From NCBI GenBank assembly GCA_965209155.1, contig OZ242383.1:765236-829235 (forward strand): a stretch of DNA of 64,000 nucleotides, written 5' to 3'. The position numbers and the translations under genes are program-made. This DNA is from a bacterium (GTDB taxonomy: Bacteria; SAR324; NAC60-12). The stretch's first letter is position 1. Each line of letters begins with the position of its first letter. This document shows positions 35,683 to 64,000 of this stretch, one piece after another. Under the pieces are notes generated by a model that was given only the letters and a program-made list of their open reading frames with translations, ran no database searches and was not told the DNA's origin.

Positions 35683-37245
35683 ATGTCTGAAGAGAAACCG
35701 GACCGCAGTGGCGCGGAAAGTCTGGTGCAAACCTTTGTGGATGCGGACGTTGATGTCTGTTTTGCGAATCCGGGAACATCGGAAATGCACTTTGTGGCAG
35801 CGTTGGATACCAACCCGGAGATGCGCTGCATTCTGGGTTTGTTCGAGGGGATTGTCACGGGCGCCGCTGATGGTTATGGGCGCATGGCGGGCAAGCCCGC
35901 TGCGACGCTGACCCATTTGGGTCCGGGGTTCAGCAACGGCTGGGCAAACCTGCACAATGCCAAGAAGGCGCGAACACCGGTCTTAAACGTCGTTGGTGAT
36001 CACGCGACGTATCACCGTAAGTACGATGCGCCGTTGACGTCCGACGTCGAGGGCGTGGCCCGCTCAGTTTCGGGCTGGGTCAAGGTTTCGCAATCGGCCG
36101 ATGAAGTAGCCGCAGACGGCGCGGAAGCGGTACAAGCGGCAATGGCACCTCCCGGGCAAGTAGCTACCTTGATTCTCCCGGCGGACACCGCATGGAGTCG
36201 CACGACGTCGCGGGGTAAGCCGCTACCTCGTATCGAGCCGAAAAATCCGTCCGGGGACAACATCGACGCGGTTGCCAAAGCATTGAAGACTGGTGAGTCG
36301 GCGGTTTTGCTGCTGAACGGCCACATCACCGAGGAGCGATCTGCCTTGGCGGATCGGATCGCCCAAACCACGGGCTCGCGCGTGATCATGGATACGTTCA
36401 TTCCGCGTCTGCAACGAGGTGCGGGGCGCGCGGGACTGCAGCGTCTGCCTTACTTCGGTGAGCAAGCGACGGAGGTGTTGGCCGGTACAAGACATTTGAT
36501 CTTGGTGAGTTCGCAACCGCCCATCACCTTTTTCGCTTATCCCGACAAGCCGAATTGGTTGACGCCGGAGGGTTGCGAATTGCTCGCGCTTGTCGAACGC
36601 GATGAGGACGTGACTGCAGCCTTGGCGGCTCTTGCCGATGCAGTCGGCGCCGCCAGCACACAAGCCAATCTAGTGGAGCTGGAACTTCCCGACTTGCCCA
36701 AAGGAGACCTCACGCCGGGATCGATCGGTGCTTCGTTGGCCCACCAGTTTCCCGAGAATGCGATCGTCGTGGACGAAAGCGGCACGTGTGGCAGGGGATG
36801 CACCGACTTTACGCGTACGTCTCCGCCGCATGACTGGCTCATGCTGACCGGCGGTTCGATCGGCTATGGGCAACCGTGCGCGACGGGCGCGGCTGTCGCC
36901 GCACCCAATCGCCGCGTGATTTGTTTGCAAGCCGATGGCGGAGGAATGTACACGCTGCAGGCTCTGTGGACCCAGGCGCGTGAAAAGCTCGACGTAACCA
37001 CAATTATCTTTGCCAATCAGAAATACTCGATTTTGCAGATTGAGTTCGGACGCGTCGGCGCCCACAACCCGGGACCGAAGGCGATGAGTATGCTCGACCT
37101 GACGAACCCGGAACTCAACTGGGTCTCTCTGGCGGAAGGCATGGGTGTACCGGCGTGGCGGGTCACAACGGCCGAACAGTTCAATAAGGTGTTGGCGGAT
37201 TCGTTGAATTCACCCGGCCCGTCGCTCATCGAGGCGATGATTTAG
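35683..37245 (+). CDS. Thiamine-pyrophosphate-dependent enzyme, acetolactate-synthase-large-subunit-like
   Basis: N-terminal TPP pyrimidine-binding domain (ESLVQTFVDADVDVCFANPGTSEMHF, GPGFSNGWANLHNA). C-terminal TPP-binding loop (LQADGGGMYTLQALWT...IIFANQ). Markedly GC-rich. Confidence 0.8.
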   Translation: MSEEKPDRSGAESLVQTFVDADVDVCFANPGTSEMHFVAALDTNPEMRCILGLFEGIVTGAADGYGRMAGKPAATLTHLGPGFSNGWANLHNAKKARTPVLNVVGDHATYHRKYDAPLTSDVEGVARSVSGWVKVSQSADEVAADGAEAVQAAMAPPGQVATLILPADTAWSRTTSRGKPLPRIEPKNPSGDNIDAVAKALKTGESAVLLLNGHITEERSALADRIAQTTGSRVIMDTFIPRLQRGAGRAGLQRLPYFGEQATEVLAGTRHLILVSSQPPITFFAYPDKPNWLTPEGCELLALVERDEDVTAALAALADAVGAASTQANLVELELPDLPKGDLTPGSIGASLAHQFPENAIVVDESGTCGRGCTDFTRTSPPHDWLMLTGGSIGYGQPCATGAAVAAPNRRVICLQADGGGMYTLQALWTQAREKLDVTTIIFANQKYSILQIEFGRVGAHNPGPKAMSMLDLTNPELNWVSLAEGMGVPAWRVTTAEQFNKVLADSLNSPGPSLIEAMI

Positions 37246-37580
37246 GTATTGGTATGACAAATCCAGCCATGGATGGCCTGAGGACAGTGGGTCCTGGATC
37301 GATAAGATACGGGAATAGTGAATGGCAGGCCAAATCTGGCCTGAGGAGTAACTCTCGTCTCTTTTGAGATGATCGAACCAACTGAGGAGACGGCTGCTGC
37401 CGTCCATGAAAAAACATAGCCTCTGCAAAAAGAAATCAGTGACCGCAATCCCTTAGAATCCGATTGGATATTAAAATTGCATGTTTACTATTTCCATCTT
37501 TTGATGCCACCCGGATATTGAAAGCCATCCCATTGCCCAAAAAACTTGTATGATTCGGCTAATTTTTGTATAAAATACTT

Positions 37581-58286: not shown

Positions 58287-58335
58287 GTAACTATTCAGGT
58301 CTCAGAAAAACCCGTTTAGCTAAATATCATTAAAT
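58287..58335 (-). repeat. 49-nt conserved junction sequence, copy A
   Basis: GTAACTATTCAGGTCTCAGAAAAACCCGTTTAGCTAAATATCATTAAAT. 45 of 49 positions are identical to copy B (59966..60014). Confidence 0.85.
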
Positions 58336-58619: not shown

Positions 58620-59948
58620 CTATGTGTTCACCGAGACGGCCTCCTCGATGTCCTGGCGCGGTAGTCCCTCCTCATCGTCGCAGAGCATCTTGACCACGTC
58701 CTGCAGCTCTCTGTGGGTTAACGCTGCGTGGACGCTCGCTGCCTTGGCAAAGGCATCCGCCGATTCGACTTTGTTGTCTCTTGCCCGAAGGTCACGCACA
58801 AATGACGGCACGATGCACGTCAGCATCGCCCAGCGCTCCTCGCCAGAGACATTCAGCTCTGGAGGCGCCCTATGGTAGGTGCGCGAGTCGTAGAGGATGC
58901 CGGAACCAGCGGTAAACGAAGGCTGGACAACGTCCTGGAACGGACCTTCCCCCGCGACTGTCGGCACCTCGTTCATCTCTGTCGGCGGCGGGGTGTCGAA
59001 CTCATGGGAACCCAGAACGAACTGCGTGGCGCCCGTTTCCGGCGTGAAATCGGTCAGCGCGATGTTGAACTGCATCCCCAGCCTGTCCTTGCGTCCCTTC
59101 CAGTCTGGATACCGCGGTGAGATTGACGCATCAAGCTTCTCGAATTCCTCCGGGCCCAGCATGTAAGTGTGAGCTTCAGTCTCGCTCGTGAGCGGGTAGG
59201 GGTAGTCGGCGTGCCAACCACCGGGCATGACACGGGCATTCTCTCCAGTCTTCTCTGCGGGCCTTAGGATTGAGATCGCCGGTAATTGACAGTAATGGAT
59301 GGAGTCGACTCCGAGGTAGCTCTCGATCAGCCACAACGAGATCGGGTGCATCAGTGCTTGCGCAACCGCCGGCGTCCTACAAAAGAAACTCTCGCCCTTG
59401 TCCATTAGCGCTTGCGGGCGAATGAGGTTGTCGAAGGAACTGTACGGGCGGCTGTCCTGGGCTGCCTTCACCTTGGCCTCCTTCTCGGCTCCCTTCTCCC
59501 GCACGATGTTCACGTTCGCAACCAGGTTCGCCACCATCGCGGGGCTCATGACGTTCTCCACTACGGTCCACCCCTGCATCTCGAGCTCAGCGAGGTAAAC
59601 CGATGGCAGGCGGGCCGGCGCCTCACGCGCTGAAAACACGAGCTGATCCCCCAGATCAGCCAGCTTGGGCGCGTCGCCTGTGAGGCGGTATTTCTGCGGC
59701 ACGAGCAGGCTCGCGCCGGGACCGAACGCCGCGTCGATCTCCGCCGCCCGGTTCGAGTCCGGCAGCTCGCCGGAGGGCTCGACCATCACTGTGGCCCCCG
59801 TCACGGCGTTCCGTAAGCGTGAAGTGCTCTCCCACTCCCACATGCAACTGTCGTCGCATCGCGGACGCAGCCCAAAGCCGCTTTCTTCCGTCCCATCGCA
59901 CAAGTGTAGGCCCGTGGACTTGCTTACAAGCAGTATGTAGTCGTGCAT
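58620..59948 (-). CDS. Phytanoyl-CoA dioxygenase (PhyH)-family Fe(II)/2-oxoglutarate oxygenase with N-terminal extension
   Basis: PGGWHADYPY (HxD), GATQFVLGSHEF and SRTYHRAPP. 442 aa. Very GC-rich relative to its flanks. Confidence 0.7.
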   Translation of the reverse strand: MHDYILLVSKSTGLHLCDGTEESGFGLRPRCDDSCMWEWESTSRLRNAVTGATVMVEPSGELPDSNRAAEIDAAFGPGASLLVPQKYRLTGDAPKLADLGDQLVFSAREAPARLPSVYLAELEMQGWTVVENVMSPAMVANLVANVNIVREKGAEKEAKVKAAQDSRPYSSFDNLIRPQALMDKGESFFCRTPAVAQALMHPISLWLIESYLGVDSIHYCQLPAISILRPAEKTGENARVMPGGWHADYPYPLTSETEAHTYMLGPEEFEKLDASISPRYPDWKGRKDRLGMQFNIALTDFTPETGATQFVLGSHEFDTPPPTEMNEVPTVAGEGPFQDVVQPSFTAGSGILYDSRTYHRAPPELNVSGEERWAMLTCIVPSFVRDLRARDNKVESADAFAKAASVHAALTHRELQDVVKMLCDDEEGLPRQDIEEAVSVNT

Positions 59949-59965: not shown

Positions 59966-60014
59966 GTAACTATTCAGGTCTCTGAAAAACCCGTTCAGTT
60001 CAATATCATTAAAT
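59966..60014 (-). repeat. 49-nt conserved junction sequence, copy B
   Basis: GTAACTATTCAGGTCTCTGAAAAACCCGTTCAGTTCAATATCATTAAAT. Covers the last 6 sense codons plus the stop of the Toprim-like gene and the 29 nt downstream of it. Confidence 0.85.
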
Positions 60015-60615
60015 TCAGAAAATCGCGAATATTACTGAAAACGTTGTGGTTCAAATCCCAGTAATTTTTCTTTGCTGCCACACCCACGGAAACATGGGGC
60101 TCAGGCTTTGTTGTCAGATAAGCAAACGCGCGGGCCTTCTCCTGTCTCTTGACAGACATATCAAGCAAATCTTCTATGCACTTGAAAAAGTCATCGATAC
60201 AGCGATCCTCCGGGGTACCCGCAAAGCTTTCGCAAAGAAGCGTTTCGAGCATACCCTGGCGATTGTTGCCGGGCAATATCAGTACCGTCACCTTCGGGAG
60301 GGTAGCAGTGGGTTCTTCGGGGTGGGGTGGAACAGGCAGTTTGGCGTTCGTTAATGAAGTCTGAACACTTTGAAACGCCCCTTCTGCGGATCTTTCCGCA
60401 TCACGTACGATGCCAATACTCTCAACAATCTCATGAAAATGCGGCATGTTCACAAGTGCAAGGAGGAAACTACGCAATTCGTCGACACCGCCGAAGTCCT
60501 GGATCTGGATATTCGGGAACGATAGATGCTCAATGAGCGCTTCAAAGAAATTGAGTTGGTCCTTGCCCTCCACGAGCAGTTGAATTTTCGACTCGATTTG
60601 TTTTGCTATTGCCAT
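59995..60615 (-). CDS. Small Toprim/OLD-nuclease-like protein (DUF3226/DUF4435-like, tentative)
   Basis: N-terminal strand plus acidic motif IQLLVEGKDQ. Central IGIVRDAE acidic motif. VTVLILPGNN. 206 aa. Starts 2 nt after the upstream ATPase gene. Confidence 0.55.
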   Translation of the reverse strand: MAIAKQIESKIQLLVEGKDQLNFFEALIEHLSFPNIQIQDFGGVDELRSFLLALVNMPHFHEIVESIGIVRDAERSAEGAFQSVQTSLTNAKLPVPPHPEEPTATLPKVTVLILPGNNRQGMLETLLCESFAGTPEDRCIDDFFKCIEDLLDMSVKRQEKARAFAYLTTKPEPHVSVGVAAKKNYWDLNHNVFSNIRDFLNLMILN

Positions 60616-60617
60616 AC

Positions 60618-61730
60618 CTAACGAACCTCGAGACTGTGTCCGATCGCGGCATCGATTGCATCCGGTTCATAGGTAACGCAGCGATTCTTCTTGTCAGCGA
60701 TTTCAAGCCTGTGCAGGCGAAAATTGTCGGGACTCAAGGACGTATGGGCTGCGTTCACGCATTCAAGACTGTGCGTGGTTGCGAATATTTGAGTGTGGAA
60801 TTGCCTGGCCGCTTCGGCAATGACCCTCCAGAAATCGGGTAGTACGGAGTGATGAATGCCATTTTCTATTTCGTCCACCAGCACGACGCCACCTGGAACG
60901 GAAGCTATGGCCAGGACGAGCCGGGCAATTTGAATCATCCCTTCCCCCATGACTGCCATCGGCACCAGTTCGGGCCACCCGATGTCTCCCCAGATCATGG
61001 GGATCCCACTGGAAGAATTATCCTCGATGCTCAACAGTCTCGGCTCGACGACCTGTAGTGCTTTCAAGAGCAAATCTCCCCGTTTCTGTCGTCTCAATCT
61101 ACCGAGTCTCATGGCATCATCGGGAGTACTCCTGGTACGAGACGAAAGAATAACCGCCTGAAAGGGAGCATTTATAACAGGCTGATCGACCTTGACTTCC
61201 TGTCCTTCCATATAAATACGACTTTTAACTGGTTTTTTTGAACGACAGCTATAAAGAAATATTAGTGAACCATCAAAAAGATTAGTAACCGAAATGCCGG
61301 TAGTACGATCTAGAGAAATTCCGGTGGTGGCTTGGCGTTCCGATTCGATTTTTAAAGACAATAGACCTTGAGCCGTGTGATTTCCCTCGATCTCAATGGA
61401 CTGCCCCATGTCCAGATTAGAGAAGAGTTGCTTCCACAAGGGCTCGCCTGGCGGAACACTGATCGTATCCAGGCCGCGAATAATATTGACGTTCACTGCC
61501 ATTTGCGCGTTTCCGGATCCCGTCAACAGAAAAACTGCCTCGAGCAAACTGGTTTTGCCAACGTTGTTTTTGCCGGCAATGAGGTTGATATCACTCAATT
61601 GGTCGATTTTGAGTTCGTTGAAGCCTCGAAAATTTCGTACCTGTAAACTTTCGAACATCGCTTTCACGCCTTGTTTAAATCTGGTTGACCTCGTTTTTTT
61701 CATGTTCTTTGAAATTGTACGTTTCGACAT
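60618..61730 (-). CDS. ABC/SMC-type AAA ATPase (AAA_21/AAA_15-like)
   Basis: LQVRNFRGFNELKI...LIAGKNNVGKTSLLEA (Walker A), MGEGM (signature-like), VVLVDEIENGIH (Walker B/D-loop), ATTHS (H-loop). The true start may be the internal MFESL at 61658. Confidence 0.8.
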   Translation of the reverse strand: MSKRTISKNMKKTRSTRFKQGVKAMFESLQVRNFRGFNELKIDQLSDINLIAGKNNVGKTSLLEAVFLLTGSGNAQMAVNVNIIRGLDTISVPPGEPLWKQLFSNLDMGQSIEIEGNHTAQGLLSLKIESERQATTGISLDRTTGISVTNLFDGSLIFLYSCRSKKPVKSRIYMEGQEVKVDQPVINAPFQAVILSSRTRSTPDDAMRLGRLRRQKRGDLLLKALQVVEPRLLSIEDNSSSGIPMIWGDIGWPELVPMAVMGEGMIQIARLVLAIASVPGGVVLVDEIENGIHHSVLPDFWRVIAEAARQFHTQIFATTHSLECVNAAHTSLSPDNFRLHRLEIADKKNRCVTYEPDAIDAAIGHSLEVR

Positions 61731-62015
61731 CGCTTACATGCCTCATCCCATCTTTTTCATTTTCCTGGTTTGGTGTTGATCCAGGACCCGTTTTGGAAGG
61801 ATTCAGTTTCAGGTTTTACAGTTGATTCAAACTCATATAACGTTCTCATGGCAATTTCACTTATATCATTGAACGGCTGCCCAATAAATAGAAAAGTCCA
61901 CAAAACGGACAAGGTCCACTCCCCTTAACGCGACGAGTCATTGGGGCAATTGCCCTTATTTACTTGAAATTCTATTTCGTGGTCAAGCTTGCAAGTTTGG
62001 AAAAAATCTTTTAAG

Positions 62016-62258
62016 TAACCTGAGTTCGAGATAAGCTTTTAACAAATTCAATATGTTAAGGAATCTTCATATCTCAGAGAAACCTTGTCATTCCTGGCTT
62101 GACCAGGAATCCAGGGGTAGGCAGATAGACTGAAATCTGGATCCCCGCTCCCCGCTCCCTGCTTTCGCAGGGACAAGTTTAGCAGGGACAAGTTTAGCGA
62201 GGATGACCTATACACCAGAATATTCCAATTATTGAAGATTAACGTCGAACTCGGGTTA
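62016..62258 (+). mobile_element. MITE family 1, copy 2
   Basis: TAACCTGAGTTCGAGATAAG... ...ACGTCGAACTCGGGTTA. Carries a TCATTCCTGGCTTGACCAGGAATCCAGG module and the long palindromic module in the opposite position and orientation from copy 1. Confidence 0.8.
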
Positions 62259-62566: not shown

Positions 62567-62610
62567 GTAACTATTCAGGTATCTTCAGAGAACCCATCGA
62601 TTTAAACACA
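62567..62610 (-). repeat. Junction sequence, copy C (diverged)
   Basis: GTAACTATTCAGGT is identical to copies A and B. The rest (ATCTTCAGAGAACCCATCGATTTAAAC) is only partly alignable. Confidence 0.55.
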
Positions 62611-62825
62611 GATTTTGCGTAGCATAGAGTCCGGAAAAGACTTCATCCTCTCGAAAGTTCAAAAATATATTGATTCCCTTTCATCAATTCCCCACCTCGA
62701 AGCTCTTCAAGAAGCCAGTCAACACTTTGAAAAAGAACGAGAGCCATGGAAGCAAGAGCGCTTAGCACTCTGATTTACCTCCCTGAGATATAGTCGAAAG
62801 TTGGGGATGGACTAAATTTGAAGGT

Positions 62826-62886: not shown

Positions 62887-64000
62887 ATGAGCAACTATAA
62901 CGTGATTGATCTGGAGAAGCCAGAGCAAATTATTGAAGATCATTTGAGTGAACTTTTGAGAGTGAAAGCCAGGAAGATACTTTCTGAAGCGTTGGAATTG
63001 GAGATGGAAATATTCATGAAGGAATATCAGTCCTATCGACTCTCGGATGGACGTCAGCGAGTGGTTCGTCATGGTTATCATCAAGATCGGGAGATTCAGA
63101 CGGGAATTGGTTCTATATCCGTGAAAGTTCCGCGGAGTAAAGATCGTCAAAGCACCTCATCAGAGGAAAGGATTCGATTTTCTTCCAAGTTGATCCCCCC
63201 TTATCTGAGGAAAAGTAAAAGTATTGAAGCCCTGATTCCCTGGCTGTATCTGAAAGGGATTTCCACTGGTGGCTTTCAGGAGGCGCTCGCAGCGATTTTA
63301 GGTAAAAGAGCGGCGGGCTTGTCTTCAGCGACAGTGAGCCGTCTTAAATCAAGCTGGTATGAGGATTGGAAAGCCTGGAAACAACGGGATCTCTCCCAGA
63401 GTCATTATGTTTATCTCTGGGTCGATGGCGTGTATTGCAATGTGAGAATGGATAAAGATAAACAATGCCTCTTGGTGATTGTGGGGGCAACAGAAAATGG
63501 AGATAAAGAGCTCGTTGCCTTGGAAGATGGCTACCGGGAAAGTGAGCAATCCTGGAGGGAACTGCTGATGGATCTGAAGCACCGGGGATTGACTGAGGCC
63601 CCTAAAATCGCTGTGGGAGACGGAGCGATGGGATTTTGGAAAGCTTTGAAAAAAGTCTATCCTCAGAGCAAAGAGCAGCGTTGTTGGATGCACAAAACGG
63701 GAAACATTCTCAACTATTTACCAAAAAGGGAGCATCATAAAGCCAAGGATCGTCTCCATCAAATTTGGATGGCCAGCAGCAAAGAGGAAGCTTTCAAAGC
63801 CTTAAAGCATTTTGTTGACATGTATGAGGCGAAATATCCTAAAGCCACTCACTGCTTGATTAAAGATCAGGAGACCTTGATGGCCTTCTATGATTTCCCG
63901 GCAGAGCATTGGAGGCATTTGAGAACGAGCAATCCCATTGAATCCACCTTCGCTACTGTCAAACTGAGAACTGCCAAAGTCAGAGGTTGTTTCTCAAGAA
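62887..64000 (+). mobile_element. IS256-family (mutator-type) transposase gene, 3' end outside window
   Basis: Open frame from the ATG at 62887 to the window end; not in the ORF track because there is no stop. YLWVDGVY, AVGDGAMGFWKAL, CWMHKTGN, LRTSNPIESTFATVKLRT. Confidence 0.9.

Follow-up and report, generated by a model that had tools for sequence, protein, structure and literature searches.

Two adjoining minus-strand genes in a SAR324 bacterium (GTDB lineage NAC60-12; GenBank assembly GCA_965209155.1, contig OZ242383.1) raise the question of whether they form an anti-phage module and, if so, of which kind. We analysed the 64,000-nucleotide (nt) stretch that holds them, positions 765,236 to 829,235 of the forward strand of the contig, which we call the window and in whose own coordinates all positions are given. 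A preliminary description had read the pair, at 59995-61730, as an ATP-binding cassette (ABC) ATPase followed by a Toprim-like protein, and as a candidate PARIS/OLD-like module that might be an undescribed miniature variant. We find that the pair is a divergent member of a catalogued but uncharacterized family, DUF3226/PDC-M38, and not a new class of system. Its probable role is that of an ATPase-controlled Toprim nuclease module of this type, translationally coupled and engaged in defence or genetic conflict.

A coupled ATPase and DUF3226 gene pair

The upstream gene was listed as an open reading frame (ORF) of 370 amino acids (aa) at 60618..61730, and the downstream gene (59995..60615) encodes a 206-aa DUF3226 protein with an OLD-like Toprim domain and a helical domain; both lie on the minus strand. 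They are not chance ORFs, since Pfam profiles match both products: AAA_15 (8.6e-20) and AAA_21 (1.6e-19) match the ATPase and DUF3226 (1.6e-31) the small protein. The ATPase most likely starts at M25, with an ATG at 61658, and would then be a 346-aa protein of the ABC type, with a head like that of structural maintenance of chromosomes (SMC) proteins, encoded on the minus strand by 60618..61658 (stop codon included). We prefer this start because the homologues are 346-349 aa long, because PADLOC models begin at residue 25 of the ORF, and because the nearest orthologue, the 347-aa protein of locus L001, aligns from 61658. The 24 codons at 61659..61730 (minus strand), which an alternative ATG at 61730 would add as an N-terminal extension, are probably an untranslated leader. 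ATPase residues are numbered from M25, so that K35 is K59 of the 370-aa ORF.

At the gene junction (60616..60629, minus strand) the sequence reads ...GAGGTTCGT TAG gt ATG. The ATPase stop codon occupies 60618-60620, a 2-nt spacer follows at 60616-60617, and the small gene opens with its ATG at 60615; a Shine-Dalgarno-like GAGG (60626-60629) lies within the last ATPase codons, 10 nt 5' of that ATG. Such a layout is typical of translational coupling and suggests that the ATPase and the small gene are coupled in this way. The tight spacing first described thus held when both minus-strand ORFs and the spacer were rechecked, and every motif quoted with it (Walker A, Walker B, H-loop, LLVEGKD and IVRDAE) was found, with its coordinates verified.

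The small protein is a predicted OLD-type Toprim nuclease

Pfam assigns the small protein to DUF3226 (PF11536) with a score of 110.1 bits, where 27 is the cut-off (E 1.6e-31; profile positions 3-205 of 208), and all 240 homologues listed carry this domain. The only PADLOC models that match it at E<=1 are those of PDC-M38B, with PDLC04624 at 1.3e-13 over positions 8-211 of 220. Neither Pfam nor PADLOC gave a match to DUF4435, AriB or AbiLii profiles at E<=1, and PHROGs gave no meaningful match. A sequence search of the PDB returned nothing, and a profile search of the PDB returned non-significant matches only, including AriB at E=1.2 over the region of the Toprim glutamate. One distant DUF3226 homologue, from Klebsiella, weakly matches Mad4/DUF4276 (6e-4), a family that has been placed in the Toprim superfamily (PMC12065111).

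The AlphaFold2 (AF2) model of the small protein, with a pLDDT (predicted local distance difference test) score of 93.9 and a predicted template-modelling (pTM) score of 0.90, consists of four beta-alpha units and then a helical domain; the strands, each of which leads into a helix, span residues 11-15, 36-40, 66-73 and 108-114. Only three PDB entries were matched by Foldseek at E<=1e-3, and all three (6njx, 6njv and 6njw) are the catalytic C-terminal region of the class 2 OLD protein of Xanthomonas (E 1.6e-4 to 9.3e-4, probability 1.0, template-modelling (TM) score 0.47-0.48). The C-terminal region of Burkholderia pseudomallei OLD (BpOLD; 6nk8) came next at probability 0.94, and AriB was absent from the top 50.

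Conservation singles out a set of mainly acidic residues. The alignment for the small-protein model held 146 sequences in two subfamilies that share ~23% identity, and E16, G17, D72, G121 and E124 are invariant across both; D19, G43, E74, T125 and K160 are additionally invariant across 65 genomic copies of the subfamily to which the window's protein belongs. On the minus strand, E16 and D19 fall in LLVEGKD (60559-60579), G43 within 60484-60498, D72-A-E74 in IVRDAE (60394-60411), E124 and T125 at 60241-60255, and K160 at 60136-60138. The metal ligands and catalytic lysine of BpOLD are E400, E404, D455/D457, T506/E508 and K562 (PMC6755086), and by motif order and position E16, D19, D72, E74, E124, T125 and K160 would correspond to them. 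Model and alignment agree with the features of the Toprim superfamily: the glutamate (E16), the glycine (G43), the acidic pair D72-A-E74, four beta-alpha units, and OLD Toprim regions as the top structural matches.

By its model, the small protein is an OLD-type Toprim fold and a predicted nuclease. The resemblance of its N-terminus and central acidic motif to Toprim and OLD nucleases, first drawn from short motifs, is borne out by the modelled fold and by the Foldseek matches to the OLD C-terminal region.

A compact ABC ATPase without a long coiled coil

The ATPase carries, all on the minus strand, a Walker A motif (GKNNVGKT, 61551-61574), a signature-like MGEGM (60936-60950), a Walker B motif (VVLVDEIENG, 60858-60887) and an H-loop (ATTHS, 60768-60782), and the key residues K35, D262 and H296 of Walker A, Walker B and the H-loop are invariant in 76 homologues. 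The best PADLOC models match it over their full length, AbiLi PDLC02336 at 4.7e-54 (1-340 of 340) and PDC-M38A PDLC04611 at 1.5e-46 (1-383 of 383). Matches to AriA, GajA, PtuA, NsnB and HEC-01A/02A models are much lower or partial; those of AriA (1e-24 to 5e-19) are partial and well below AbiLi and PDC-M38A, and mad3 and HEC-01A also match in part. No NCBIfam model matched either protein above its cut-off, and the ATPase matches below cut-off (RecF, Rad50, Eco8, PtuA and MAD3) cover the P-loop region only, about 45 residues in the repair families, and fall far below their thresholds.

The AF2 model of the ATPase (pLDDT 81) is a compact ABC head, with an insertion that is beta-rich and holds two short helices in place of a long coiled coil. 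Foldseek placed it in the SMC/Rad50/OLD/PtuA/GajA superfamily at 1e-9 to 1e-11, with PtuA first and with SMC heads, the OLD protein TsOLD, GajA and the OLD protein of retron Eco8 among its structural neighbours; AriA was outside the top 50. The SMC/ABC-type assignment of the preliminary description therefore stands, and the AAA_15/AAA_21 group to which the protein belongs also supplies the ATPases of OLD, Gabija, PARIS, Septu and AbiL.

These results bear directly on a first alternative, that the pair is a miniaturized but true PARIS system, with hexameric sequestration of the nuclease, an anti-restriction protein as trigger and tRNA cleavage as outcome. Gene order is the same, an AAA_15/21 ATPase and then a separate Toprim protein, and such a system would also account for the AriA-model matches of the ATPase, for the weak AriB match over the Toprim glutamate and, through an anti-anti-restriction role, for the frequent restriction-modification (R-M) neighbours of related pairs described below. 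Against this, the small protein matches no DUF4435 or AriB profile at E<=1, AriA and AriB both fall outside the top 50 structural matches, the AbiLi and PDC-M38A models fit the ATPase far better than AriA does, and the modelled ATPase is without the long coiled coil of the AriA hexamer (PMC11464382). No phage or satellite homologues were found either, and we consider a true PARIS very unlikely.

An obligate two-gene module across many phyla

Of 79 homologous loci, 77 carry an ATPase homologue next to the small gene, upstream and on its strand, and the spacer is exactly 2 nt in 44 of the 62 intact pairs. The identities of the two proteins to those of the window rise and fall together (r = 0.88 over 65 loci). 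Across the loci, no third gene upstream proved to be conserved; a 51-aa ORF and the adjoining upstream DNA are kept only in the closest relative. The locus is a strict two-gene module with near-universal, obligate pairing.

The DUF3226 profile found 6299 cluster representatives (at 50% identity) with E<=1e-3, and the top 150 consist almost entirely of standalone proteins ~200-230 aa long. Our genome survey used the alignment of the window's subfamily and covers that subfamily, of which species-representative genomes held 76 loci (L004-L079; 46-82% aa identity), all in metagenome-assembled genomes (MAGs). These belong to Latescibacterota, Poribacteria, Entotheonella, Binatia, Dehalococcoidia, Caldilineaceae, Nitrospirales, Acidobacteria, Alpha- and Gammaproteobacteria and Spirochaetia. 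Several of their bin names (IRC, RHO and CO) and their mix of phyla match those of MAG sets of coral-reef sponge symbionts, and together the names and taxa suggest a possible link between this subfamily and sponge symbionts. R-M, CRISPR and toxin-antitoxin (TA) genes are reported to be enriched and laterally transferred in those MAG sets (PMC8163846). Some genomes carry two loci (for example, OZ244028.1 and OY282381.1), and about 11 loci hold frameshifted or truncated copies (L067-L075, L078 and L079).

Neighbourhoods, lateral spread and plasmid carriage

The 127 nearest neighbours of homologous pairs fall into 112 Pfam families, and by raw count the commonest are DNA methylases (seven N6_N4_Mtase, four Methylase_S and two N6_Mtase), with PADLOC models for type II and type III methyltransferases. 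In L002 the pair follows a type I R-M operon, and in other loci it adjoins Mrr-ResIII-methyltransferase and Eco57I-type enzymes or methylases like those of types IIG and III. In L024 (5931-13992) it stands between a 990-aa, DUF1156 methylase-like protein and one of 1117 aa with HEPN_Swt1 and DUF499, which is an embedding inside a helicase/methylase/ATPase-type system and a textbook case of 'guilt by embedding'.

The closest relatives, L001 and L082, have PIN/Phd, SocA_Panacea, Peptidase_M78 plus DUF4411 and Fic genes nearby. Each holds two divergent ATPase and DUF3226 pairs in opposite orientation (752-2722 and 6955-8630 in L001; 4515-6274 and 8877-10642 in L082), which flank the Peptidase_M78 and DUF4411 genes and whose small proteins are ~23% identical. 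The window holds one pair only, and the Peptidase_M78, DUF4411, SocA_Panacea, PIN/Phd and Fic genes are absent from it. Taken together, the contexts of the family are variable, non-syntenic and often beside R-M or TA genes, rather than conserved housekeeping contexts.

The cassette itself, window positions 60010-61972, is 86% identical at the nt level to those of the closest relatives, and the adjacent opp-type permease genes are ~69% identical (~50% for the proteins). Comparisons of this kind indicate that the pair spreads laterally between phyla. They also bear on the idea that the pair serves housekeeping DNA repair or recombination, as RecF/RecR or Rad50-type ATPases with a Toprim partner would. 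That idea draws on the N-terminal P-loop region of the ATPase, which weakly resembles RecF, Rad50 and RecN, on the fact that RecR is itself a Toprim protein, and on the RecQ or other housekeeping genes beside some pairs. It is hard to reconcile with repair-family matches that are far below cut-off and confined to ~45 residues, with the lack of conserved synteny (112 families among 127 neighbours), with an identity across phyla far above that of flanking genes, with genomes that can hold multiple and pseudogenized copies, and with carriage on plasmids; we give a repair role scarcely any credence.

Plasmid carriage is clearest in a distant branch (27.6% identity) in Klebsiella, where 4.1-kb ColE1-type (ColRNAI) plasmids carry the pair and no other cargo. 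L080 (NZ_CP030721.1, pKpnB4_4 type, 4119 bp) and about 130 similar small, non-mobilizable plasmids encode only Rop, a helix-turn-helix protein and the ATPase and DUF3226 pair, whose genes overlap by 1 nt and which NCBI annotates as 'ATP-binding protein' and 'DUF3226 domain-containing protein'. The same Klebsiella module is inserted in a 244-kb resistance plasmid (L081).

A sole cargo of this kind is what one would expect if the pair were a TA-like addiction or stability module, with the Toprim protein as toxin, the ATPase as antitoxin and no dedicated anti-phage role. The frequent classical TA neighbours (PIN/Phd and SocA_Panacea) fit such a reading as well, and type II TA behaviour has been described for PARIS itself (PMC10802264). 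PARIS equally illustrates that TA and defence functions are not exclusive, and a 346-aa ATPase with invariant catalytic motifs would be a costly antitoxin unless it also sensed something. Given also the recurrent placement of the pair in or beside R-M systems, we regard a purely addictive role as rather unlikely and retain defence or genetic conflict as the preferred reading.

The surroundings of the pair in the window

The window chromosome is otherwise ordinary, with glnA, glnE, a carboxyltransferase, a SurA-like peptidyl-prolyl isomerase and two opp-type transporter loci. The pair sits between a PhyH-like gene and a patch with an IS256 transposase and sequence like that of miniature inverted-repeat transposable elements (MITEs). 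The PhyH-like gene (58620-59948, minus strand, 442 aa; weak PhyH (phytanoyl-CoA dioxygenase) match at 6.7e-9) has a GC content of 0.615 against 0.473 for the window, which agrees with its description as a foreign GC-rich gene, and it is apparently an insertion between the opp-type operon and the pair. The IS256-family transposase, likewise as described, matches Transposase_mut at 1e-64 in an ORF that runs on the plus strand from 62887 to 64000 and is open at the window end. The MITE-like palindrome (..CTTGTCCCTGC..GCAGGGAGCGGGG..) lies upstream of the pair at ~62040-62215. A further GC-rich kilobase (36001-37000, GC 0.617) falls within a thiamine pyrophosphate-dependent enzyme gene (35683-37245, plus strand), which may be another foreign gene.

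Three plus-strand copies of an 18-mer, GTAACTATTCAGGTCTC(T/A), are confined to the patch (58287-58304, 59966-59983 and 62567-62584; 0.02 expected by chance) and bracket the PhyH-like gene and the ATPase and DUF3226 pair. The copies at 58287 and 59966 share ~50 nt, and the latter overlaps the last codons of the small gene. Homology to the cassettes of L001 and L004 ends at 60010, at this middle repeat. L004 has one copy too, in a stretch of 200 nt that matches window 62567-62765 at 84% identity, and the window blocks 62567-62765 and 37349-37454 show 84-86% identity to positions in L004 that are not linked, and so look like small repeated elements shared among related genomes. The 18-mer copies may be att-like boundaries or a duplication left by successive insertions. 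No tRNA genes or Rfam families, sought as integration landmarks, were found near the locus.

The decayed paralog fragments reported for this patch are not borne out as a second pair: tblastn finds one pair only in the window, and we reject the idea of a second, decayed copy. A ~50-nt duplicate of the 3' end and flank of the small gene does lie at 58287.

Upstream of the pair, the non-coding region 61731..61972 (minus strand) is 84-86% identical in nt to L001, against ~69% for flanking genes, and is not conserved in more distant loci; the promoter or leader of the pair presumably lies within it. A scan for consensus promoters and terminators gave no more matches than shuffled sequence did, and the minus (coding) strand held no sigma-70-like site. 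A terminator-like hairpin with a T-run was seen in the L001-conserved region at 61896-61910 (minus strand), ~240 nt upstream of the ATPase start at 61658, and may mark where an upstream gene, since lost, once ended, or else belong to a leader.

Surroundings of this sort invite the view that the window copy no longer functions and is left over in a patch that is decaying and riddled with insertions. A local repeat has taken the place of the 3' end of its small gene, its neighbours include an IS256 transposase, MITE-like sequence and a foreign GC-rich gene, and about 11 homologous loci elsewhere are pseudogenes. Yet neither ORF is truncated, no conserved catalytic residue has been lost, the replaced C-terminal residues lie in a region that varies among intact homologues, and the coupling junction is preserved. 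We consider an inactive remnant unlikely.

A proposed mechanism and its weight

If the pair is an ATPase-controlled nuclease module, as we prefer to read it, a compact, SMC-head-like ABC ATPase without a long coiled coil would be paired with a nuclease of 206 aa encoded by a gene of its own. On the model of OLD, Gabija, PARIS and Septu, both proteins would be made in fixed proportion and form a complex in which the ATPase acts as sensor and regulator of the nuclease. An infection or foreign-DNA cue would lead to ATP binding or hydrolysis and so to release or activation of the Toprim subunit, which would cut nucleic acid by two-metal catalysis, with E16, D72 and E74 at metal A, D19, E124 and T125 at metal B, and K160. 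Cleavage would halt the invader or the infected cell, possibly as abortive infection. DNA is the likelier substrate because the best structural match is OLD; the alternative would be tRNA or another RNA, as for AriB and RNase M5. The analogies are drawn from PMC6755086, PMC10568477, PMC11464382 and PMC10802264, and it is by analogy only that we infer complex formation, trigger, substrate and defence phenotype for this pair.

A number of observations weigh against this interpretation. The structural match to OLD is modest (TM 0.47-0.48, with a root-mean-square deviation of ~8 Å over the whole chain), the residue equivalences to BpOLD rest on motif order, and the Toprim 'DxD' motif reads D-A-E, with glutamate in place of the second aspartate. 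The last ~5 codons of the small gene come from the local repeat, in a region that varies among homologues. The neighbours in the window (PhyH-like, opp-type and IS256) include no recognized defence gene, many nearest neighbours elsewhere are housekeeping genes (TonB receptors, CoA transferases, HisG and RecQ), and the neighbour counts are raw. Unlike for PARIS, tblastn found no homologue in phage genomes, and BFVD viral structure predictions gave nothing at E<=1e-3. The candidates of the PDC series are described as untested, and the ATPase plus TOPRIM candidate HEC-01 gave no defence (10.1101/2024.01.29.577857); in the literature searched, main texts do not mention DUF3226 or PDC-M38.

More tentatively, and with rather more doubt than belief, we raise the possibility that the family is a minimal, mechanistically distinct split-OLD immune system, in which an ABC ATPase that lacks a coiled coil exerts direct control over an OLD-like Toprim nuclease of ~200 aa, with no PARIS-type hexamer. 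The window's subfamily would then be a ~2-kb cassette that spreads between phyla in symbiont-type bacteria (Latescibacterota, Poribacteria, Entotheonella, Binatia, Chloroflexota and others), with a distant branch as the sole cargo of tiny Klebsiella plasmids.

Modules that combine an ABC ATPase with a Toprim protein (OLD, Gabija, PARIS, AbiL and MADS) are widespread in prokaryotic immunity, and few have known triggers or substrates. Within them the DUF3226/PDC-M38 branch is compact, strictly two-gene and large (~6,300 clusters at 50% identity), and if its small subunit is an OLD-like Toprim nuclease, DUF3226 becomes a testable hypothesis. Our analysis offers two handles, a 4.1-kb Klebsiella plasmid version and a symbiont-associated subfamily that clearly bears the marks of lateral spread. 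A specialist would expect a defence candidate here, and the window pair is an ordinary accessory defence-type cassette; the Toprim/OLD assignment and the distribution data may be useful.

Comparison with known systems

PARIS shares with the window pair a split ABC ATPase and Toprim nuclease, with the ATPase gene first, and its sequestration and ATP-dependent release of the nuclease offer a plausible model of regulation. It differs in both subunits: AriB is a DUF4435 protein of ~300 aa and AriA, of ~450 aa, bears hexamer-forming coiled-coil insertions, and the window pair has neither. The reported masses are ~53-55 kDa for AriA and ~35 kDa for AriB, and the coiled-coil insertion of AriA builds the hexamer (PMC11464382). 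PARIS is also common on phage satellites, whereas the DUF3226 family gave no phage matches. On the profile and structural results above, we reject membership in PARIS: no DUF4435 or AriB match at E<=1, AriA and AriB outside the structural top 50, and an ATPase without the coiled coil. The preliminary description was thus right about the OLD/PARIS-like build and wrong about a PARIS affiliation; both proteins are indeed smaller than AriA and AriB, but theirs is the normal size of a separate DUF3226 family and not that of a miniature variant.

In OLD and GajA, ATPase and Toprim domains are fused in one polypeptide, whereas the window pair is two genes with a stop codon between them. The catalytic region of class 2 OLD is nonetheless the only significant structural match of the small protein, with acidic residues and a lysine that would by their order be equivalent, and the window ATPase resembles the heads of TsOLD and GajA in Foldseek. 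Gabija adds a UvrD-like helicase, GajB; with no helicase gene flanking the window pair and its domains unfused, we reject Gabija. MADS (Mad3/Mad4), Campylobacter RloA/RloB and HEC-01 share the split architecture of AAA_15/21 ATPase and Toprim protein in or near R-M loci (PMC10802264, PMC11464382, PMC12065111), but the Toprim subunits of MADS and RloB belong to other Pfam families (DUF4276 and RloB), neither of which the window's small protein matches.

AbiL comes closer. An AbiLi-type ATPase is common to both, PDLC02336 being the best ATPase match, as is the two-gene layout of ATPase and then nuclease. AbiLii is reported to superpose on OLD 6NJV (PMC13064643), and the same OLD region is the top PDB match class of the window's small protein. 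No AbiLii model matches that protein at E<=1, however, and on this ground AbiL proper is rejected. AbiL has a demonstrated anti-phage phenotype; the DUF3226 family has none demonstrated.

The closest counterpart is PDC-M38, a candidate defined from two cassettes embedded in BREX, DISARM or type I R-M systems (Payne et al. 2024, 10.1101/2024.01.29.577857 supplement). Relatives of the window pair adjoin or lie in R-M systems, as in that definition, and the window pair itself does not. What had been proposed as an undescribed module is in this sense already described: its small protein is Pfam DUF3226, a profile that the preliminary description had itself named for checking and that has 6299 representatives, and the pair is modelled in PADLOC as PDC-M38. 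Both window proteins match the PDC-M38A and PDC-M38B models near full length, in the same gene order and on the same strand, an agreement at the level of models. The PDC-M38B match, at 1.3e-13 here against 9.4e-39 for the second pair of L001, marks the window pair as a divergent branch.

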